33,060 bases of DNA from Escherichia coli (GTDB lineage: Bacteria > Pseudomonadota > Gammaproteobacteria > Enterobacterales > Enterobacteriaceae): assembly GCF_003334315.1 (NCBI RefSeq), contig NZ_QOWR01000052.1, one strand, 5' to 3'. The notes beneath the pieces are model-generated. The model saw only the letters and a program-made list of their open reading frames with translations, had not been told where the DNA came from and searched no databases. Every line of letters starts with the position of its first letter. The stretch's first letter is position 1. Both the position numbers and the translations under genes were made by a program. Below, in pieces: positions 1 through 33,060 of this stretch.

Positions 1-60
1 AGTGGTGGCGCATTATAGGGAGTTATTCCGGCCTGACAAGAGGAAATTTAAAATAATTTT
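1..60 (-). promoter_or_regulatory. rRNA operon P1-type promoter (by synteny rrnA P1) with upstream A/T-rich UP element, transcribing leftwards out of the window
   Basis: Minus strand of 1-60 reads AGAAAATTATTTTAAATTTCCTCTTGTCAGGCCGGAATAACTCCCTATAATGCGCCACCACT: -35 TTGTCA (34-39), 16-bp spacer, -10 TATAAT (12-17), GC-rich discriminator GCGCCACC, matching the rrnB/rrnA P1 promoter as I remember it. hemG lies directly upstream of rrnA in E. coli. Confidence 0.8.
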
Positions 61-88
61 CTGACCGCGCATTTTTTATTCTTTATGC

Positions 89-634
89 TTATTTCAGCGT
101 CGGTTTGTCGGTTAAATGGGCGATTTCTCGGGCGAAATTCGCCACCTGCTCCCAATCGGTATAGACAACTTCTTTGCGCGTATCCGTTTCACCGCCTGAC
201 ATCTTCATAATCAGCTTGATCATAAAACGGTCGTACCAGCGATAACGTGGGTAACGCAGCGCCCCGGCAATGACCGCGCAGCGATCGGGACGCCATTGCG
301 AGTTCATCAGAAACTTGCGCGCGTAGCTGTTGGTCTGTGGAGTACGCTTCTCCGGTTTGCGCGCCACCAGATTCACGGAGTAAAAGGCGCTCGGCATCGA
401 ATTCAGCCGCGTCGCATGTTTTTTGACAAATTCCTGGAACGCTGAATGGTAGTGACCATAGCGAATAGAAGCACCAATGACCACACGGTCATAGTTTTCC
501 CACTGTGGTTCTTCAATGCGGTGCACATTGGCGACATCCGCCTGGATCCCCAGTTCTTTCAGTTCCGAAGCCAGGTAGGAGGCAATCTCGCGCGTTTGTC
601 CGTCCCTTGTTGAGAAAAGAATTAATGTTTTCAC
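89..634 (-). CDS. hemG: protoporphyrinogen IX oxidase HemG (flavodoxin-like, menaquinone-dependent)
   Basis: 181-aa ORF beginning [25 protein letters not shown], a flavodoxin-like fold; follows trkH as in E. coli. Confidence 0.9.
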
Positions 635-645
635 GTATTACTCCA

Positions 646-2097
646 TCATTCACGCCAGAAAGTCGGGGTAAAGAGCACCAGCAATGTAAAGACCTCGAGA
701 CGACCAAACAGCATGTTGGCAATCAGGATCCATTTAGCCACCGGGTTCATACTGGTAAAGTTATCAGCAACCACGCCAAGCCCTGGCCCCAGGTTATTCA
801 ATGTCGCAACAACCGACGCAAAGGCAGAAAAGTCATCCACGCCCGTGGCGATAATCGCCAGCATACTGACAATAAACACCAATGCATAGGCGGAGAAAAA
901 TCCCCAAACGGCTTCGAGGATACGTTCCGGCAGTGCGCGATTCCCCAGCTTAATGCTATAGACGGCGTTCGGATGCACCAGTCGTTTCAGCTCACGGTTC
1001 CCCTGCTTAAACAGCAGCAGGATGCGGATCACCTTCAGGCCACCGCCCGTTGACCCGGCGCAACCGCCGATAAAGGCTGAACATAAAAGCAGTACCGGCA
1101 AAAAGAGCGGCCAGCGGGCAATGCTGTCAGTTGTAAACCCGGCGGTTGTCGCCATCGACACCACCTGGAAAAACGCCTGGTTAATTGTCATCAGCGCCGA
1201 ACTGTAGACATTATGAAACCACAGTACGAGGGTACAAATAACCACCAGCGTAAACTGTACGCCGATAAACATGCGAAATTCCGGATCGCGCCAATAAACC
1301 TTCAGACTACGCCCACTTAACAGTGAAAAGTGCAGACCGTAGTTACAGCCGGAGATCAGCAGGAAGATAGCAATGATAGTGTTAATAGTCGGGCTATCGA
1401 AATAACCGATACTGGCATCATGTGTCGAGAAGCCGCCAATAGCGATAGTCGCAAAGCTATGGCCGATGGCATCAAAGGCATCCATTCCGGCAAACCACAA
1501 CGCCAGCGCACAGGCGACGGTCAGCAAGACATAAATCAACCACAGGGTTTTCGCCGTTTCCGCAATTCGCGGGCGCATTTTGTTATCTTTCAGCGGGCCG
1601 GGCATTTCTGCGCGATAGAGCTGCATCCCACCCACGCCGAGGATAGGCAGTATCGCAACCGCTAACACGATGATCCCCATCCCGCCAAACCATTGCAGCA
1701 TCTGGCGATAAAAGAGGATGGCATGAGGGAGCGAATCCAGCCCCACCAGCGTAGTGGCCCCGGTGGTGGTCAGGCCAGAGAAAGATTCAAAAAACGCATC
1801 GGTAATCGTGAGGTTCGGGCTTTCCGAGAAGATAAAAGGGAGCGCACCGACACTACCCAGCACGGTCCAGAACAGCACCACTATCAGAAACCCCTCACGG
1901 GATTTCAGTTCGCCCTTCTCTTTGCGGTTCGGCCACCACAGCATAGAGCCAATGGCGAGGGCGACAAAAAAGGTCTGGGTAAAAGCGCGGCCCGCTCCAT
2001 CCCGGTAGATGAGTGCTACCAGCCCTGGGATAATCATGGTCCCTGAAAATAAGATGACCAGTAGTCCAACGATTCGGGTAATGGCGCGAAAATGCAT
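646..2097 (-). CDS. trkH: Trk system potassium uptake protein TrkH
   Basis: 483-aa polytopic membrane ORF (MHFRAITRIVGLLVILFSG...) located between yigZ and hemG. Confidence 0.9.
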   Translation of the reverse strand: MHFRAITRIVGLLVILFSGTMIIPGLVALIYRDGAGRAFTQTFFVALAIGSMLWWPNRKEKGELKSREGFLIVVLFWTVLGSVGALPFIFSESPNLTITDAFFESFSGLTTTGATTLVGLDSLPHAILFYRQMLQWFGGMGIIVLAVAILPILGVGGMQLYRAEMPGPLKDNKMRPRIAETAKTLWLIYVLLTVACALALWFAGMDAFDAIGHSFATIAIGGFSTHDASIGYFDSPTINTIIAIFLLISGCNYGLHFSLLSGRSLKVYWRDPEFRMFIGVQFTLVVICTLVLWFHNVYSSALMTINQAFFQVVSMATTAGFTTDSIARWPLFLPVLLLCSAFIGGCAGSTGGGLKVIRILLLFKQGNRELKRLVHPNAVYSIKLGNRALPERILEAVWGFFSAYALVFIVSMLAIIATGVDDFSAFASVVATLNNLGPGLGVVADNFTSMNPVAKWILIANMLFGRLEVFTLLVLFTPTFWRE

Positions 2098-2135
2098 CTC
2101 TGCCGCTTCCTTAGTTCTGCAAAACGAAGTGGGGA

Positions 2136-2750
2136 TTATTCTTCAATCGCTAACAATTGCAATGAACCACGGCTAAAATCCGCCAGCTTTGCGGAAAATT
2201 CAGCCACTTTCGCCGCCGGAAGCGCCACCCGCAGCAGAACGAATGCCTGATAATCACTGTTGATAATTTTGCCGTCACACTGCCCCAGCAACGCTTCAAT
2301 GCCGGTTAACTGACTATATTCACATTGCAAAGTATATTCGGTTAATGGCGTCTTGCGTTGGGTCGTTAGCTGGCGCAGCGCCTGATTCACGCCGCCGCCA
2401 TACGCTTTCACTAACCCACCGGTGCCAAGCAATATGCCGCCGTAGTAGCGCACTACCACAGCGGTAATTTCCCCGACGCCGCTGCCCATTAGCTGGGCGA
2501 GCATCGGTTTACCTGCCGTTCCCGCCGGCTCCCCATCGTCAGAGAACCCCAGCTGTTGTGAATCATCCGGCGCACCCGCCACCCACGCCACGCAATGGTG
2601 GCGGGCATCGGGGTGTTCTGCCCGCACCGATTCAACAAACGCTTTCGCCGCCTCAACGCCATCGGTATGCGCCAACAGCGTAATGAAGCGGCTTTTTTTG
2701 ATCTCTTCAACGACCGTGACCGGTGCCGCAGGAATTAACCAGCTTTCCAT
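2136..2750 (-). CDS. yigZ: IMPACT-family protein YigZ (UPF0029), function uncharacterised
   Basis: [31 protein letters not shown]...; the six-frame track starts one codon earlier at GTG 2753, but the ATG at 2750 gives the 204-aa form and overlaps the pepQ stop by 1 nt (TGATG). Confidence 0.85.
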   Translation of the reverse strand: MESWLIPAAPVTVVEEIKKSRFITLLAHTDGVEAAKAFVESVRAEHPDARHHCVAWVAGAPDDSQQLGFSDDGEPAGTAGKPMLAQLMGSGVGEITAVVVRYYGGILLGTGGLVKAYGGGVNQALRQLTTQRKTPLTEYTLQCEYSQLTGIEALLGQCDGKIINSDYQAFVLLRVALPAAKVAEFSAKLADFSRGSLQLLAIEE

Positions 2751-4081
2751 CACGCCAGTTTCAGATCCCGGGTCATGTTTTCCACGTTGTTTTCGTGGAT
2801 CACCACGTTGTCTTCGATACGAATGCCGCCGAACGGTTTCAGTGCTTCAATTTTCTGCCAGTTGAAGTGTTTGCTGAACTGCCCTTCACGCCACGGCGCC
2901 AGCAGCGATTCGATGAAGTAGATACCCGGTTCGATGGTTAACACCATGCCTGGCTGGAGAATACGGGTGCAGCGCAGGTACGGATATTTTGCCGGTGCCG
3001 CGAGATGCGTACCGCTATCATCCTGCATAAAACCAGCGACATCATGCACCTGGAGGCCCAGCGGATGGCCGATACCGTGCGGCATAAACGGTCCGGTGAG
3101 ATCGTTTTCGACCATCGCTTCTTCACTCATATCGGTGATGATTTGATGTTTACGCAGCAATTTGGCGATGCGCTGATGGAACTGGATGTGGTAATCCACA
3201 TAGCTGACGCCAGCTTTCATGGTGGCGATCAGCGCCAGTTGTTCATCATTTACGTCTTTCACCAGCTGTGCGTAGTCGTTGTCGCTTTTTGCCGACCAGG
3301 TACGGGTCAGGTCAGCCGCATAGCCGTTATATTCGGCCCCGGCATCCAGCAGGAAGCTGCGCATCTCTTCCGGCGCCTGATGATCCAGTTTGGTGTAATG
3401 CAGCACCGCAGCGTGTTCGTTGAGCGCCACAATGTTGCTGTAAGGTACGTCGGTATCACGATGACCGGTCGCGGTCAGATAGGCAATATTGATATCGAAC
3501 TCGCTCATGCCAGAACGGAACGCTTCTTCTGCCGCACGATGACCGTTGACCGCCATTTTCTGCGCTTCACGCATACAGGCCAGTTCGTACTCGGTTTTGA
3601 AGGAGCGGTAGTAATGCAGGTAGTCGATCACCCCTTTCGGGTTGATGTTGCTGGCCTCAATACCCAGTTGCAGCGCACGTTCTGGCACCGGACCGATATA
3701 ACCGATATTGCCGCGCGCAGCAGGCAGCAGGCTACCAATGCCATCGGCTTTCGGCAGCGCGATCACTTCCACATCTTCAGTCCAGAAGGAGGTCGGCAGC
3801 GGTTCGACGTTGTGCCAGTAATCAACCGGCAGATAAAACCACAGTTTCGGCTTGTTCACACCATCCACCAGCAACCAGCAGTTTGGCACCTGAGTTACCG
3901 GCACCCACGCTTTGAATTGCGGGTTCACTTTAAACGGATAGGGATGATCGTCGAGAAAAACATTGAACAGCTCGCCGGAGTGAATAAGTAACGCATCCAG
4001 CTTGAAGCGCGCCAGCGCATCGCGAGTCCGTTCTTGTAAGGTAGCTATATGATTTTTATAGAGCGAGGCCAGTGATTCCAT
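2750..4081 (-). CDS. pepQ: Xaa-Pro dipeptidase (prolidase) PepQ
   Basis: 443-aa [29 protein letters not shown]... with M24 metallopeptidase-type HxxGHxxGLxxHD region; divergent from fadB. Confidence 0.92.
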
Positions 4082-4228
4082 TTTTTACCCTTCTGTTTTT
4101 TTGACCTTAAGTCTCCGCATCTTAGCACATCGTTCATCCAGAGCGTGATTTCTGCCGAGCGTGATCAGATCGGCATTTCTTTAATCTTTTATTTGCATAT
4201 TTTTAACACAAAATACACACTTCGACTC

Positions 4229-4245
4229 ATCTGGTACGACCAGAT
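4229..4245. promoter_or_regulatory. FadR operator in the fadBA promoter
   Basis: Perfect palindrome ATCTGGTACGACCAGAT 26 bp upstream of the fadB ATG; matches the FadR operator half-sites (TGGT...ACCA) known at fadB. Confidence 0.75.
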
Positions 4246-4270
4246 CACCTTGCGGATTCAGGAGACTGAC

Positions 4271-6460
4271 ATGCTTTACAAAGGCGACACCCTGTACCTT
4301 GACTGGCTGGAAGATGGCATTGCCGAACTGGTATTTGATGCCCCAGGTTCAGTTAATAAACTCGACACTGCGACCGTCGCCAGCCTCGGCGAGGCCATCG
4401 GCGTGCTGGAACAGCAATCAGATCTAAAAGGGCTGCTGCTGCGTTCGAACAAAGCAGCCTTTATCGTCGGTGCTGATATCACCGAATTTTTGTCCCTGTT
4501 CCTCGTTCCTGAAGAACAGTTAAGCCAGTGGCTGCATTTTGCCAATAGCGTGTTTAATCGCCTGGAAGATCTGCCGGTGCCAACCATTGCTGCCGTCAAT
4601 GGCTATGCGCTGGGCGGTGGCTGCGAATGCGTGCTGGCGACCGATTATCGTCTGGCGACACCGGAGCTGCGCATCGGTTTGCCGGAAACCAAACTGGGCA
4701 TCATGCCTGGCTTTGGCGGTTCTGTACGTATGCCACGTATGCTGGGCGCTGACAGTGCGCTGGAAATCATTGCCGCCGGTAAAGATGTCGGCGCGGACCA
4801 GGCGCTGAAAATCGGTCTGGTGGATGGCGTAGTCAAAGCAGAAAAACTGATTGAAGGGGCGATGGCGATTTTACGCCAGGCCATTAACGGCGACCTCGAC
4901 TGGAAAGCGAAACGTCAGCCGAAGCTGGAACCGCTAAAACTGAGCAAGATTGAAGCCACCATGAGCTTCACCATCGCTAAAGGGATGGTCGCACAAACGG
5001 CGGGGAAACATTATCCGGCCCCCATCACCGCAGTAAAAACCATTGAAGCTGCGGCCCGTTTTGGTCGTGAAGAAGCTCTAAACCTGGAAAACAAAAGTTT
5101 TGTCCCGCTGGCGCATACCAACGAAGCTCGCGCACTGGTCGGCATATTCCTTAACGATCAATATGTAAAAGGCAAAGCGAAGAAACTCACCAAAGACGTT
5201 GAAACCCCGAAACAGGCCGCTGTGCTGGGCGCAGGCATTATGGGCGGCGGCATCGCTTACCAGTCTGCGTGGAAAGGCGTGCCGGTTGTCATGAAAGATA
5301 TCAACGACAAGTCGTTAACCCTCGGCATGACCGAAGCCGCGAAACTGCTGAACAAGCAGCTTGAGCGCGGCAAGATCGATGGTCTGAAACTGGCTGGCGT
5401 GATCTCTACAATCCACCCAACGCTCGACTACGCCGGGTTTGACCGCGTGGATGTTGTGGTAGAAGCGGTTGTCGAAAACCCGAAAGTGAAAAAAGCCGTA
5501 CTGGCAGAAACCGAGCAGAAAGTACGCCCGGATACCGTGCTGGCGTCTAACACTTCAACCATTCCTATCAGCGAACTGGCCAACGCGCTGGAACGTCCGG
5601 AAAACTTCTGCGGGATGCACTTCTTTAACCCGGTCCACCGGATGCCGTTGGTGGAAATTATTCGCGGCGAGAAAAGCTCTGACGAAACCATCGCGAAAGT
5701 CGTCGCCTGGGCGAGCAAGATGGGCAAAACGCCAATTGTGGTTAACGACTGCCCCGGCTTCTTCGTCAACCGCGTGCTGTTCCCGTATTTCGCCGGTTTC
5801 AGCCAGTTGCTGCGCGACGGCGCGGATTTCCGCAAGATCGACAAAGTGATGGAAAAACAGTTTGGCTGGCCGATGGGTCCGGCATATCTGCTGGATGTCG
5901 TGGGCATTGACACCGCGCATCACGCTCAGGCGGTGATGGCAGCAGGCTTCCCGCAGCGGATGCAGAAAGATTATCGCGATGCCATCGACGCGCTGTTTGA
6001 TGCCAACCGCTTTGGTCAGAAGAACGGCCTCGGTTTCTGGCGTTATAAAGAAGACAGCAAAGGTAAGCCGAAGAAAGAAGAAGACGCCGCTGTTGACGAC
6101 CTGCTAGTAGAAGTGAGCCAGCCGAAGCGCGATTTCAGCGAAGAAGAGATTATCGCCCGCATGATGATCCCGATGGTCAACGAAGTGGTGCGTTGTCTGG
6201 AAGAAGGCATTATCGCCACTCCGGCAGAAGCGGATATGGCGCTGGTCTACGGCCTGGGCTTCCCTCCGTTCCACGGCGGCGCGTTCCGCTGGCTGGACAC
6301 CCTCGGCAGCGCGAAATACCTCGATATGGCACAGCAATATCAGCACCTCGGCCCGCTGTATGAAGTGCCGGAAGGTCTGCGTAATAAAGCGCGTCATAAC
6401 GAACCGTACTATCCACCAGTTGAGCCAGCCCGTCCGGTTGGCGACCTGAAAACGGCTTAA
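4271..6460 (+). CDS. fadB: fatty acid oxidation complex alpha subunit (enoyl-CoA hydratase / 3-hydroxyacyl-CoA dehydrogenase / epimerase)
   Basis: ORF from ATG 4271 ([32 protein letters not shown]), 729 aa, with GGAG RBS at 4261-4264. The six-frame ORF starting at 4145 is an in-frame upstream extension with no RBS and overlaps the FadR site. Confidence 0.93.
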
Positions 6461-7639: not shown

Positions 7640-7826
<187 letters not shown>

Positions 7827-10277: not shown

Positions 10278-11590
<1,313 letters not shown>

Positions 11591-13277: not shown

Positions 13278-15520
<2,243 letters not shown>

Positions 15521-22327: not shown

Positions 22328-23281
22328 ATGATCGAAGTAAAACACCTGAAAACGCTACAAGCGTTGCGGAACTGCGGCTCGCTCGCAGCCGCTGCGGCGA
22401 CGTTGCATCAGACGCAATCCGCCCTGTCTCACCAGTTTAGCGATCTGGAACAACGCCTTGGCTTCCGGCTATTTGTGCGTAAGAGCCAGCCGCTACGCTT
22501 TACACCGCAGGGAGAAATCCTGTTGCAACTGGCAAACCAGGTACTGCCGCAAATTAGCCAGGCCCTGCAAGCCTGCAATGAACCGCAGCAGACGCGTCTG
22601 CGCATTGCCATTGAGTGCCATAGCTGTATTCAGTGGCTGACACCCGCGTTAGAAAATTTCCATAAGAACTGGCCGCAGGTAGAGATGGATTTTAAATCGG
22701 GCGTGACATTTGACCCGCAGCCCGCCTTGCAACAGGGAGAGCTGGATCTGGTAATGACGTCCGATATTCTGCCGCGCAGTGGCCTGCATTATTCGCCGAT
22801 GTTCGACTATGAAGTGCGTCTGGTGTTAGCACCTGACCATCCACTGGCGGCGAAAACGCGAATTACACCGGAAGATCTCGCCAGCGAGACGCTATTAATT
22901 TATCCGGTGCAGCGTAGTCGACTGGATGTCTGGCGGCATTTTCTTCAGCCGGCAGGCGTCAGCCCGTCACTGAAAAGCGTCGATAACACCTTATTGTTGA
23001 TTCAGATGGTTGCCGCGCGGATGGGTATTGCCGCGCTACCGCATTGGGTAGTAGAGAGTTTTGAGCGCCAGGGTCTGGTGGTGACCAAAACCCTGGGCGA
23101 AGGCTTGTGGAGCCGACTGTACGCCGCCGTGCGCGATGGCGAGCAGCGTCAGCCAGTTACGGAAGCGTTTATTCGCTCAGCGCGCAATCACGCCTGCGAT
23201 CATCTGCCGTTTGTGAAGAGCGCGGAGCGACCCACTTACGATGCACCCACAGTGAGGCCAGGATCACCAGCGCGCCTGTAA
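22328..23281 (+). CDS. metR: LysR-family transcriptional activator MetR
   Basis: 317-aa [57 protein letters not shown]... with N-terminal HTH. Confidence 0.93.
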
Positions 23282-30965: not shown

Positions 30966-31856
30966 ATGGATGCAAAACAAACGCGGCAGGGCGTATTACT
31001 CGCTCTTGCCGCTTATTTTATTTGGGGTATAGCGCCAGCGTACTTCAAGTTGATTTACTACGTGCCCGCCGATGAAATCCTGACGCATCGCGTGATCTGG
31101 TCGTTTTTCTTTATGGTGGTGCTGATGAGCATTTGCCGCCAGTGGTCCTATTTAAAAACGCTGATTCAGACGCCACAGAAAATTTTTATGCTGGCAGTCT
31201 CTGCCGTGCTGATTGGTGGCAACTGGCTACTGTTTATCTGGGCGGTGAACAATCACCATATGCTGGAAGCGAGCCTTGGTTACTTTATTAACCCGCTGGT
31301 GAACATTGTGCTGGGGATGATTTTCCTCGGCGAGCGATTCCGCCGGATGCAATGGCTGGCGGTGATTCTGGCGATATGTGGCGTGTTAGTCCAGCTGTGG
31401 ACTTTTGGTTCGCTACCTATTATCGCGCTGGGACTGGCATTTAGTTTTGCCTTCTACGGTCTGGTACGCAAGAAGATTGCCGTTGAAGCGCAAACCGGCA
31501 TGTTAATCGAAACCATGTGGCTGCTGCCCGTGGCGGCAATTTACCTGTTTGCTATTGCCGACAGCTCAACCAGCCATATGGGGCAAAACCCGATGTCGCT
31601 GAATTTACTGCTGATCGCCGCCGGTATTGTCACTACCGTACCGCTGTTGTGTTTTACCGCCGCTGCCACGCGCTTGCGTCTCTCAACGTTAGGCTTTTTC
31701 CAGTACATTGGCCCGACGCTGATGTTCCTGCTGGCTGTGACGTTTTATGGTGAAAAACCGGGTGCCGATAAGATGGTGACTTTCGCCTTTATTTGGGTGG
31801 CGCTGGCAATTTTTGTGATGGATGCGATTTATACGCAGCGTAGAACGTCCAAATAA
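30966..31856 (+). CDS. rarD: DMT/EamA-family inner membrane protein RarD
   Basis: 296-aa ten-TM ORF MDAKQTRQGVLLALAAYFIWGIAPAYFKLIYYVPADEILTHRVIWSFFFMVVLM... Confidence 0.9.
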   Translation: MDAKQTRQGVLLALAAYFIWGIAPAYFKLIYYVPADEILTHRVIWSFFFMVVLMSICRQWSYLKTLIQTPQKIFMLAVSAVLIGGNWLLFIWAVNNHHMLEASLGYFINPLVNIVLGMIFLGERFRRMQWLAVILAICGVLVQLWTFGSLPIIALGLAFSFAFYGLVRKKIAVEAQTGMLIETMWLLPVAAIYLFAIADSSTSHMGQNPMSLNLLLIAAGIVTTVPLLCFTAAATRLRLSTLGFFQYIGPTLMFLLAVTFYGEKPGADKMVTFAFIWVALAIFVMDAIYTQRRTSK

Positions 31857-31950
31857 AAAATAAATATATTCTGAAAAAATATGCCGACTCTTGCATGAGA
31901 GTGGGCATATTGCCATGCTGACCGGAGACTCATACAAGGATGTAAAATTT

Positions 31951-32331
31951 ATGTTACGTATATTTATCCCAACATCTAACGGTAAGATTTCCAGACGTCG
32001 TTATATATTTTCATTTATTTTAATAAATTTCATTTTTGCCTTTCTTATTATCTTTTTTAACGATGGAGAAGCAGGCTTTCTTGTTATAGTCTCTACCATC
32101 GTACTCCATTATCTCGTCATCAACATGAATTGCCAGCGACTCCGTGATAGTGGTTTCATCTATATAAAAACTTATGTTTTTGGTACATTAGCAGTATATA
32201 TCATCTCTATCATCACAATGATAGCCGAAGATTTTGCCTGTTCAGGCAATGGTTCGATGATTTTTTTGATTTGTTATTTTTCCACTTTCAGTATGCTAAT
32301 GCTTGCACCTACTGATTCATCAAAACAATAG
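31951..32331 (+). CDS. yigG: small uncharacterised inner membrane protein YigG
   Basis: [67 protein letters not shown]... (126 aa from ATG 31951; in-frame alternative starts at 31891 and 31915); lies in a visibly AT-rich stretch. Start codon uncertain. Confidence 0.65.
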
Positions 32332-32344
32332 TTATGGAGTATTT

Positions 32345-32629
32345 ATGAGTAAGGAATATATGAACGATGGTTCATTAAGTGAAAAATGGAAATACCGATT
32401 TAATTTTTATGATCAACATGGTTTTCCTGGATTCTGGGGGGCAACACCAGAATATAAAGCAGCATTTAAAGCATTAAAAGTAAGACAACGCTTAACTATT
32501 CAAATGAATTTCATTGCTTTCTTCTGTTCCTGGATATATTTATTTGTCCTGGGGTTATGGAAAAAAGCAATTATAGTTCTATTACTTGGTATTCTATCTC
32601 TATTTGTGGTAATGACTCCAACTTATTGA
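32345..32629 (+). CDS. yigF: small uncharacterised membrane protein YigF; reading frame runs into the IS1 end at 32608, so the last 7 codons and the stop come from IS1
   Basis: [53 protein letters not shown]... (94 aa here). Final codons GTG GTA ATG ACT CCA ACT TAT TGA overlap the IS1 terminal inverted repeat that begins at GGT 32608. Confidence 0.6.
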
Positions 32630-33060
32630 TAGTGTTTTATGTTCAGATAATGCCCGATGACTTTGTCATGCAGCTCCACCGATTTTGAGAACGACAGCGA
32701 CTTCCGTCCCAGCCGTGCCAGGTGCTGCCTCAGATTCAGGTTATGCCGCTCAATTCGCTGCGTATATCGCTTGCTGATTACGTGCAGCTTTCCCTTCAGG
32801 CGGGATTCATACAGCGGCCAGCCATCCGTCATCCATATCACCACGTCAAAGGGTGACAGCAGGCTCATAAGACGCCCCAGCGTCGCCATAGTGCGTTCAC
32901 CGAATACGTGCGCAACAACCGTCTTCCGGAGACTGTCATACGCGTAAAACAGCCAGCGCTGGCGCGATTTAGCCCCGACATAGCCCCACTGTTCGTCCAT
33001 TTCCGCGCAGACGATGACGTCACTGCCCGGCTGTATGCGCGAGGTTACCGACTGCGGCCT
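32608..33060 (-). mobile_element. IS1 insertion sequence, partial (right-end terminal inverted repeat and insB 3' portion; continues beyond the window)
   Basis: 32608-32652 is GGTAATGACTCCAACTTATTGATAGTGTTTTATGTTCAGATAATG, the reverse complement of the IS1 right end, followed by sequence that matches IS1 insB coding sequence as I remember it. Confidence 0.92.
32623..33060 (-). CDS. insB: IS1 transposase InsB (C-terminal part; 5' end lies beyond the window)
   Basis: Minus-strand translation ...[125 protein letters not shown] with TAA stop at 32623-32625; the frame stays open upstream to the window edge. Confidence 0.9.

Follow-up and report, generated by a model that had tools for sequence, protein, structure and literature searches.

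The pepQ, yigZ, trkH and hemG genes of this E. coli strain are best explained as a known four-gene transcription unit in which yigZ is translated by reinitiation after pepQ without a Shine-Dalgarno (SD) sequence of its own. We place the probability of this reading at roughly 0.7. The locus itself is an ordinary part of the E. coli core chromosome, already annotated, and presents no novelty. The junction geometry, the gene identities, the lack of a correctly spaced SD upstream of yigZ, the conservation of the −1 overlap and the non-conservation of an upstream GTG codon were observed directly.

Gene Content and Identity

All four genes are located on the minus strand of the window (the whole analysed stretch of 33,060 nt), at distances of −1, 38 and 11 nt from one another (Table 1). 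The gene identities proposed by the earlier note from the letters alone were confirmed by NCBIfam equivalog models, since each protein scored above its curated cut-off: 794 bits for PepQ (NF010133, cut-off 339), 403 bits for YigZ (NF008600, cut-off 298, positions 1–204 of 204), 1076 bits for TrkH (NF008020, cut-off 866) and 334 bits for HemG (NF008316, cut-off 142). YigZ also matched TIGR00257 with 290 bits (cut-off 168). The lengths given in the same note for the yigZ-trkH and trkH-hemG gaps proved exact.

The cluster region was found in every one of 5426 complete E. coli genomes. The corresponding K-12 genes (b3847–b3850, RefSeq) have the same order, strand, 1-nt overlap and 38- and 11-nt gaps, with no difference in architecture between K-12 and the studied strain. 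At the protein level, PepQ, TrkH and HemG are identical to their K-12 counterparts, and YigZ of the studied strain carries the substitutions M25L and H146S. The 1-nt overlap is also present in the RefSeq annotation of K-12 (pepQ 4031161–4032492, yigZ 4032492–4033106) and in that of an identical strain. In a direct comparison, the window departs from HS30-1 past position 31040. A 328-aa open reading frame antisense to pepQ (3005–3991, plus strand) gave no family match and was taken as a shadow ORF.

Table 1. Features of the pepQ-yigZ-trkH-hemG region. Positions are those of the window.
Feature	Position	Strand	Remarks
Candidate pepQ promoter, extended −10 (TG-C-TAAGAT)	4119..4127	−	~37 nt upstream of pepQ ATG, between the divergent fadB and pepQ genes
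pepQ, Xaa-Pro dipeptidase (prolidase)	2750..4081	−	443 aa; stop TGA 2752..2750; ORF list and translation, RefSeq
ACA, reported MazF cleavage site	2776..2778	−	28 nt upstream of yigZ ATG, in pepQ 3′ end
In-frame GTG upstream of yigZ ATG	2751..2753	−	Alternative start, 205 aa; not a conserved start
TGATG stop/start overlap	2748..2752	−	A2750 common to pepQ TGA 2752..2750 and yigZ ATG 2750..2748; read from sequence
yigZ, IMPACT family (UPF0029 and DUF1949 domains)	2136..2750	−	204 aa; ATG 2750..2748, stop TAA 2138..2136
Weak sigma-70-like match TTGCAA-16-AATAAT (9/12)	2135..2162	−	yigZ 3′ end; candidate internal trkH promoter
yigZ-trkH spacer	2098..2135	−	38 nt; trkH SD TAAGGAAG at 2113..2106
trkH, Trk-system K+ transporter	646..2097	−	483 aa; RefSeq annotation
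trkH-hemG spacer	635..645	−	11 nt; hemG SD GGAG 644..641, right after trkH stop (TGATGGAG)
hemG, menaquinone-dependent protoporphyrinogen IX dehydrogenase	89..634	−	181 aa; GTG start at 634; RefSeq

Junction Geometry and Start Codon of yigZ

On the minus strand the junction reads ...CTG GCG TGA TGG AAA..., and A2750 belongs to both the pepQ stop and the yigZ start, exactly as the earlier note had described. The 60 nt spanning the junction are 100% identical in 5322 of the 5426 complete genomes. RNA folding at the junction resembled that of shuffled sequence (z = −0.12), and an Rfam search of window positions 1–4400 returned no match.

The mechanical ORF list opens the yigZ frame at the in-frame GTG immediately upstream of the ATG. 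GUG is legitimate as a start codon and would likewise overlap the pepQ stop; initiation there would yield a 205-aa protein with a 2-nt overlap (GTGA), the ATG becoming an internal methionine codon. However, the GTG is confined to Escherichia: Citrobacter and both Enterobacter genomes have GCGTAATG at this place and Photorhabdus has CCATAATG, while the ATG is kept in all of them. The equivalog model for YigZ comprises 204 positions, all of which were aligned, and RefSeq also uses the ATG. Because the GTG occurs only in Escherichia, the ATG is taken as the yigZ start, and a GTG start is extremely unlikely. The scenario in which yigZ initiates only at the GTG therefore fails.

Conservation of the Junction and of the Cluster

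The −1 overlap was present in all 5 of the 5 Enterobacterales loci with pepQ upstream, namely Citrobacter, two Enterobacter and Photorhabdus (all four as TAATG) and E. albertii (as TGATG). The motif T[AG]ATG occupied invariant alignment columns in six taxa. The persistence of the −1 overlap across a switch between TAA and TGA suggests that the junction geometry is under selection in Enterobacterales. A more distant metagenomic relative has an 8-nt pepQ/yigZ overlap with a TTG start. Outside Enterobacterales the −1 geometry was not kept: Pseudoalteromonas carries a terminator-like hairpin between the two genes, and Vibrio and Pasteurellaceae have no pepQ at the locus, retaining yigZ-trkH-hemG, sometimes with TAATG overlaps. 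One Pasteurellaceae-like genome shows a TAATG overlap at both the yigZ-trkH and the trkH-hemG junctions.

The order yigZ-trkH(-hemG) is kept in Enterobacterales, Vibrio, Pasteurellaceae, Pseudoalteromonas, Colwellia and Shewanella, and the yigZ-trkH-hemG linkage spans four gammaproteobacterial orders. Adjacency of pepQ and yigZ was found in Enterobacterales, Alteromonadales and one Kangiellaceae locus. Since pepQ is missing from the locus in Vibrio and Pasteurellaceae and set apart by the hairpin in Pseudoalteromonas, the deeply conserved core is yigZ-trkH(-hemG). Judged by these gene orders, the most persistent neighbour of yigZ is trkH, followed by hemG, and not pepQ. The pepQ-yigZ coupling would then be specific to Enterobacterales rather than general to the gene pair, having probably been added onto the older yigZ-trkH(-hemG) cluster. 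One locus with decayed pepQ and trkH next to an apparently intact yigZ was considered as a symbiont; its YigZ N-terminus is itself frameshifted, and the locus was disregarded as part of an error-ridden assembly.

Translation Initiation and Probable Coupling of yigZ to pepQ

According to anti-SD duplex calculations, trkH is preceded by AAGGAA 9 nt from its ATG (−6.0 kcal/mol) and hemG by GGAG (−5.9 kcal/mol). For yigZ, the best anti-SD match was GGGA, located 14 nt from the ATG (−4.1 kcal/mol), with no correctly spaced SD. The GGGA motif is not conserved, Enterobacter Ag1 having CGTAAC at that place. The earlier note's proposal that yigZ is probably translationally coupled to pepQ is supported indirectly, by the missing spaced SD, by a −1 overlap that is conserved although the pepQ stop changes between TGA and TAA, and by the failure of the GTG-only scenario. 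Together these features indicate that the overlap probably couples translation of the two genes. Under this reading, pepQ, trkH and hemG would each be initiated at their own SD sites, and yigZ would be translated mainly by ribosomes that finish pepQ at its UGA and restart on the AUG that overlaps it. With yigZ fed by termination-reinitiation, YigZ output would be tied to PepQ output and would probably lie below it.

With its UGAUG −1 overlap, the junction has one of two canonical termination-reinitiation geometries (UGAUG or AUGA) considered by Huber et al. 2019 (PMC6728339), comparable to trpB-trpA. As in other termination-reinitiation pairs, the downstream gene lacks an independent strong ribosome-binding site. 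In that study strict coupling was found in 13 of 14 tested overlapping pairs overall and in 4 of 5 from E. coli. The pairs from E. coli overlapped by 4 nt and depended for the most part on an intragenic SD, whereas yigZ has no spaced SD. Removal of the SD lowered reinitiation in 4 of the 5 E. coli pairs, and the bioBF pair was wholly uncoupled (PMC6728339). Given this SD dependence, an SD-less junction may reinitiate poorly or behave differently.

As a class, the TGATG junction is a common junction type and not beyond chance. In the annotated part of the window, a tally made by hand from the annotation table gave 2 overlapping pairs among 18 co-directional adjacent pairs (pepQ/yigZ, −1; ubiJ/ubiB, −4) and 9 of 18 with a gap of at most 13 nt. 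The ubiJ/ubiB overlap (14915–14918) is likewise a co-directional stop/start overlap inside a known operon, differing in its −4 geometry (ATGA type) from the −1 of pepQ/yigZ; its presence in the same window indicates that such junctions are ordinary. In most prokaryotic groups, about 15% of co-directional pairs overlap (Huber et al. 2019, PMC6728339).

This frequency is compatible with another explanation, in which the overlap arose neutrally as the genome became compact and carries no regulatory meaning. Initiation at yigZ would then take place de novo, with no need for pepQ translation, perhaps on processed mRNA or at an A-rich start region that lacks structure. The unremarkable folding of the junction RNA fits this explanation, since the start is not obviously masked, and bioBF provides an E. 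coli precedent for an overlapping but uncoupled pair. Overlapping pairs often encode subunits of one complex, according to the title of PMC10666635; PepQ and YigZ, unlike such pairs, have no known interaction, and no functional link between them is known. The separation of the pair by the Pseudoalteromonas hairpin and its unlinked state in Vibrio and Pasteurellaceae point in the same direction. So does a MazF study whose Table 1 lists "yigZ, cleaved ACA, 28 nt to start" and which found the cut yigZ mRNA, devoid of pepQ, still associated with polysomes (PMC5001579). The polysome association suggests that, at least when MazF is overexpressed, translation of yigZ does not require that of pepQ. 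Against de novo initiation stand the lack of a correctly spaced SD, the only SD-like motif being non-conserved, and a −1 geometry retained from Escherichia to Photorhabdus (YigZ 64% identical) while the stop codon and the flanks vary. The strict coupling of nearly all overlapping pairs in the tested set also argues against it. We consider a neutral overlap unlikely and favour SD-less reinitiation after pepQ, which probably sets the YigZ level.

Transcription of the Cluster

The earlier note had regarded the four genes as apparently co-transcribed, and this agrees with published operon listings, with terminator-free spacers and with the design of a trkH reporter. An operon list gives pepQ-yigZ-trkH-hemG as a four-gene operon (PMC4421995), and a Dickeya Tn-seq table places the same four genes together in its operon column (PMC6637903). 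The "trkH promoter" reporter fragment of PMC9898762 extends from inside fadB to the trkH ATG. By its primers it corresponds to 4512..2098 and comprises the pepQ upstream region, pepQ and yigZ; because it includes both genes, it cannot separate an internal from an upstream trkH promoter.

In a pattern scan, the two spacers and the overlap were free of terminator-like sites. Nine such sites occurred in the region, each of them inside a coding sequence or on the opposite strand, a total not above shuffle expectation. No terminator was found between the hemG stop and the rrnA P1 promoter, which begins about 28 nt after that stop. Within the yigZ-trkH spacer, "ctaaggaagcggcagagATG" is conserved in Citrobacter and Enterobacter, and RNA folding was no better than that of shuffled sequence (z = −0.15).

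The extended −10 element upstream of pepQ is a candidate pepQ promoter. At this site Escherichia, Citrobacter and two Enterobacter share gTGCTAAGATGCG without a single change, amid variable sequence; a strict two-hexamer promoter scan did not report it. Transcription would start there, divergent from fadBA, and the transcript would run through all four genes. Three parts of the preferred reading are inferred: a single promoter, read-through across the entire unit, and coupling. None of the four genes has an entry in the supplements of SMRT-Cappable-seq or Kim 2012, and the main text of a Serratia trkH paper does not mention the pepQ or hemG context.

Alternatively, the four genes may not form one obligatory unit: trkH-hemG may be driven by a promoter within the 3′ part of yigZ or at another place, besides, or instead of, read-through from pepQ. 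The UTI89 operon annotation gives only pepQ;yigZ as a two-gene unit, and the weak sigma-70-like site in the yigZ 3′ end stops 38 nt before the trkH ATG. In the Dickeya Tn-seq data, the effect of trkH insertions (−2.33) was not reproduced by insertions in pepQ (−0.21) or yigZ (+0.1), without a polar effect on the trkH phenotype (PMC6637903); this would follow from a non-polar transposon or from a separate trkH promoter. In addition, the cluster of Vibrio and Pasteurellaceae has yigZ as its first gene, preceded by an extended −10-like motif (TGATACACT or TGATAGACT), which indicates that promoters within the cluster have arisen elsewhere.

A sigma-28 SELEX peak has also been reported within trkH; a coordinate shift places it at about window position 1107, an approximate value. 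It was considered as a hemG promoter and rejected: both nearby GCCGATAA sigma-28-like octamers are on the plus strand, opposite to the genes, with no TAAA −35, and so cannot drive hemG. The sigma-70-like site, for its part, matches the consensus at only 9 of 12 positions, and such sites are barely enriched in the region (7 found by the consensus scan versus 4.0 ± 2.0 expected by chance). It is conserved only in close relatives, where the sequence is also coding, so its conservation cannot be told apart from coding constraint and is uninformative. The published trkH reporter covered no yigZ-internal fragment by itself. On balance, an additional or alternative promoter for trkH-hemG is possible, and we hold it only tentatively beside the preferred single transcription unit.

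YigZ and Implications

YigZ belongs to the IMPACT/Yih1/YigZ family (PF01205) and combines a UPF0029 domain with a bacterial C-terminal DUF1949 domain. Pfam searches placed UPF0029 (Impact_N, PF01205) at residues 18–125 (1.1e-34) and DUF1949 (PF09186) at residues 141–195 (3.2e-15), and the DUF1949 stretch also matched EFG_C weakly (E = 0.0019). A diverse 50-member alignment contained invariant residues that include S20, F22, H51, D71, G73, E74, P75, R101, G104 and G105 (YigZ numbering). The eukaryotic members IMPACT and Yih1 bear an RWD domain at the N-terminus and target GCN1/GCN2; to our knowledge, GCN1 and GCN2 are both absent from bacteria.

The description of YigZ as uncharacterised in the earlier note is partly outdated, as a crystal structure is available (PDB 1VI7) and a gut-colonization phenotype has been reported. 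Liu et al. 2025, Cell (PMC12171958) report YigZ as necessary for E. coli gut colonization and, in a figure legend, its overexpression as sufficient to boost gut colonization by MG1655.

The cluster as such re-describes a catalogued E. coli operon with a textbook stop/start overlap and matters little as it stands. The angle of some value is YigZ, a universally distributed IMPACT-family protein recently tied to gut colonization in that report. A role of this kind would make it useful to know how the YigZ level is set and which genes are evolutionarily tied to yigZ. A level set by reinitiation and a trkH/hemG neighbourhood could guide experiments on YigZ, neither being a discovery in its own right.

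A broader joint reading combines the two: the dosage of enteric YigZ would be set by inefficient SD-less reinitiation, and the yigZ-trkH-hemG linkage would reflect a functional tie to K+ uptake or to HemG rather than inherited order. We regard this combination as speculative and quite improbable. If its dosage part is true, the TGATG junction would, given the reported boost of colonization by YigZ overexpression, throttle a colonization factor in a physiologically relevant way.

Gene Organization

The minus strand carries pepQ, yigZ, trkH and hemG in head-to-tail order. Their junctions agree with the earlier note, which had described a one-base pepQ/yigZ overlap and gaps of 38 and 11 bp. On the minus strand, the pepQ/yigZ junction reads CTG GCG TGA TGG AAA, with one base common to TGA and ATG; the yigZ-trkH spacer is 38 nt (2098-2135) and the trkH-hemG spacer 11 nt (635-645). 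The K-12 RefSeq annotation has the identical overlap (pepQ end and yigZ start both at 4032492), as does that of the near-identical E. coli strain HS30-1. All four proteins passed the curated NCBIfam equivalog cut-offs. YigZ contains the Pfam domains UPF0029 and DUF1949, and its structure has been solved (PDB 1VI7; Thermus homologue 2CVE).

Coordinates of features in the window
Feature	Position	Strand	Details
pepQ	4081..2750	minus	443 aa; stop TGA 2752..2750
yigZ	2750..2136	minus	204 aa; start ATG 2750..2748
trkH	2097..646	minus	483 aa
hemG	634..89	minus	181 aa; GTG start; stop at 91..89
rrn P1 promoter with UP element	12-60	minus	AGAAAATTATTTTAAATTTCCTC-TTGTCA-16 nt-TATAAT; 11/12 match
Extended -10 gTGCTAAGATGCG	4127..4119		upstream of pepQ, divergent fadB-pepQ intergenic region
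Sigma-70-like site	2162..2135		weak, 9/12 match; just upstream of trkH
Sigma-28 -10-like octamers GCCGATAA	1066-1073; 1261-1268	plus	antisense to trkH
ACA	2778..2776	minus	inside pepQ 3' end
Near-palindrome ATCTGGTACGACCAGAT	4229-4245		fadB-pepQ intergenic region; ~150 nt upstream of divergent pepQ start
ORF opposite pepQ	3005-3991	plus	328 aa
Erse small RNA (Rfam)	14915-15166	minus	319 bits; ubiJ 3' end at ubiJ/ubiB overlap
naRNA4 (CssrE) (Rfam)	7692-7769	minus	92 bits; fadA-fre intergenic
ubiJ/ubiB overlap	14915-14918		co-directional, 4 nt
rfaH/tatD overlap	10808-10811		convergent, 4 nt
metR/bioP overlap	23169-23281		convergent, 113 nt; per annotation of matching RefSeq record
IS1 copy in yigF	32608-33060		right end of window; extends past the edge

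The window belongs to the core E. coli chromosome, with bases 1-4400 present in 5426/5426 complete assemblies and 100% identical to several complete genomes. The four-gene cluster and its overlap are already known and annotated, and the junction is of routine type. According to the annotation table, valid for window 1-31040, two of 18 co-directional neighbouring pairs overlap (pepQ/yigZ by 1 nt, ubiJ/ubiB by 4 nt), and nine are no more than 13 nt apart. Overlapping co-directional pairs make up ~15% in most prokaryotic groups, with UGAUG and AUGA as typical forms (Huber et al. 2019, PMC6728339). As a class, the pepQ/yigZ overlap is not unusual.

Translation of yigZ

Anti-SD pairing over the 25 nt upstream of the yigZ ATG revealed no properly spaced Shine-Dalgarno sequence; the best pairing was GGGA, 14 nt from the ATG. 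For trkH, TAAGGAAG lies 9 nt upstream, and for hemG, GGAG lies 6 nt upstream. Junctions were compared through an alignment of 50 diverse YigZ proteins, with loci scanned in one genome per species. Where pepQ precedes yigZ in Enterobacterales, the -1 overlap was found in 5/5 loci (Citrobacter werkmanii, two Enterobacter, Photorhabdus caribbeanensis and E. albertii), reading TAATG in four and TGATG in Escherichia only. The SD-like GGGAT was not conserved, being replaced by CGTAAC in Enterobacter Ag1. Of 5426 E. coli genomes, 5322 share an identical 60-nt stretch around the junction. In L085, a metagenomic relative further removed (YigZ 53% identical), the pepQ/yigZ overlap is 8 nt and yigZ starts with TTG.

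Initiation only at an upstream GTG would have spoken against coupling. Among the loci compared, this GTG occurs in Escherichia alone, and the NCBIfam model aligns to residues 1-204 of 204; the GTG was therefore rejected and the ATG taken as the yigZ start.

Together, the missing spaced Shine-Dalgarno, the -1 geometry kept while sequence drifts and the ATG start lend indirect support to the coupling of yigZ to pepQ that the earlier note thought probable. Strict coupling was reported for 4/5 tested E. coli overlapping pairs, yet taking away the SD usually weakened reinitiation, and the bioBF pair showed no coupling (PMC6728339); consequently, coupling of yigZ is likely but not certain. Reinitiation lacking an SD would probably keep YigZ output low. 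A MazF-regulon study points the other way: it lists yigZ as cut at an ACA located 28 nt before the start codon and as still polysome-associated (PMC5001579). The window has an ACA at precisely this distance from the yigZ ATG, and cleavage there would yield a processed, pepQ-less yigZ mRNA under MazF overexpression. This would mean yigZ translation without pepQ, at least under that condition.

Transcription of the Cluster

The proposed co-transcription of the four genes is likewise supported indirectly. The cluster is catalogued as an operon (PMC4421995), a Dickeya dadantii Tn-seq table places the same genes together in its operon column (PMC6637903), and a consensus scan detected no terminator-like site in the yigZ-trkH or trkH-hemG spacer. 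RNA folding at the junctions was no better than in shuffled controls, and no Rfam families were found in the cluster region. The extended -10 element gTGCTAAGATGCG is perfectly kept in Escherichia, Citrobacter and two Enterobacter genomes amid variable surrounding sequence, and is likely the pepQ promoter.

The evidence leaves room for internal promoters besides the upstream one. In Dickeya, pepQ and yigZ insertions had no polar effect on the trkH phenotype (PMC6637903), a UTI89 annotation groups pepQ;yigZ as a unit of two genes, and trkH contains a published sigma-28 SELEX peak. The weak sigma-70-like site just upstream of trkH is a candidate; however, sites of that strength barely exceed chance in the scan, and coding constraint could equally account for its conservation. 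A 2022 study found 'trkH promoter' activity to be constitutive with respect to K+ (PMC9898762). Since its primers map to window 4512 and 2098, the reporter fragment takes in pepQ with its upstream region as well as yigZ; it treats trkH as part of the pepQ unit and cannot separate an internal from the upstream promoter.

The octamer GCCGATAA occurs four times in the window versus 1.4 expected, and the two copies within trkH lie near the approximate SELEX peak position. They were rejected as a hemG promoter because they are on the strand opposite trkH/hemG and lack a -35, though they may be the source of the SELEX signal.

Downstream, the rrn P1 promoter begins ~28 nt past the hemG stop, followed in matching genomes by the 16S gene. 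As the scan found no terminator-like site before P1, hemG transcripts should enter the rrnA promoter region.

Evolutionary Context

Two Pseudoalteromonas genomes have a GC hairpin of 6-7 bp and a T-run after pepQ, with the yigZ start 68-86 nt beyond; pepQ-yigZ spacers range from ~23 to 356 nt in Colwellia, Shewanella and a Kangiellaceae MAG. No pepQ was found within 4.5 kb of yigZ in four Vibrio, two Pasteurellaceae and one uncultured Enterobacterales MAG, all of which retain yigZ-trkH(-hemG). An extended-10-like motif, TGATACACT or TGATAGACT, precedes yigZ in the Vibrio and Pasteurellaceae loci. TAATG overlaps occur at both yigZ/trkH and trkH/hemG in L089, a Pasteurellaceae-like genome of low GC content, and the MAG locus L010 has TAAATG at yigZ/trkH.

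An unbiased survey of yigZ neighbours recovered lineage-specific partners: TrkH downstream (13 loci), PepQ upstream (9 loci), a co-directional TetR/RutR-like regulator upstream in eight Pseudomonas loci (L026, L029, L031, L033, L035, L060, L070, L082), co-directional tyrS (tyrosyl-tRNA synthetase) immediately upstream of yigZ in five Clostridia loci (L036, L056, L062, L074, L080), and co-directional sbcD downstream in four Streptomyces loci. Outside the pepQ- or trkH-linked loci of the comparison, the ~60 others (including Pseudomonas, Streptomyces, Firmicutes and Chloroflexi) had no pepQ, trkH or hemG near yigZ. From locus comparison and neighbour survey, the old conserved core is yigZ-trkH(-hemG). 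pepQ joined this core, with fusion by overlap in Enterobacterales only, and its probable coupling to yigZ is lineage-specific.

YigZ Variation

Of the four proteins, YigZ alone departs from its K-12 counterpart (M25L, H146S; 10 nt differences). PepQ, TrkH and HemG match K-12 at every residue, with 31, 9 and 0 nucleotide differences in their genes. Liu et al. reportedly described, in 2025, natural YigZ allelic effects on gut colonization. M25L/H146S are mildly notable and may be linked to such effects.

A 303-aa database protein (P0001; one E. coli record, named 'elongation factor') corresponds to window ~2136-3050, minus strand. A frameshift near the pepQ 3' end joins the C-terminal portion of PepQ to the whole of YigZ in a single frame; it may reflect either a genuine mutation or a misassembly.

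TraDIS has implicated yigZ in early biofilm formation (PMC8743551), and an Acinetobacter study lists a YigZ-family protein among Usp1413 interactors (PMC11699434).

Other Features of the Window

The ORF opposite pepQ has no NCBIfam match and most likely just shadows the pepQ frame. We take the near-palindrome ATCTGGTACGACCAGAT to be the FadR operator of fadBA; the Enterobacteriaceae alignment shows it conserved, and blocks ATGCAAAT and GATCAC of the same intergenic region are conserved out to Photorhabdus. Erse and naRNA4, both gathering-level matches, are known RNA families. Window 1-31040 is 99.98% identical to HS30-1, which carries the same IS1 plus a deletion reaching from early rarD across yigG into yigF that is absent from the window (30966-32607); the window is thus not from HS30-1.

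Significance

The earlier observation is thus confirmed and its interpretation supported, indirectly. Two modest points of value emerge: the predicted pepQ-yigZ coupling is Enterobacterales-specific and SD-less, and the deepest genomic tie of YigZ is to trkH/hemG, not pepQ.
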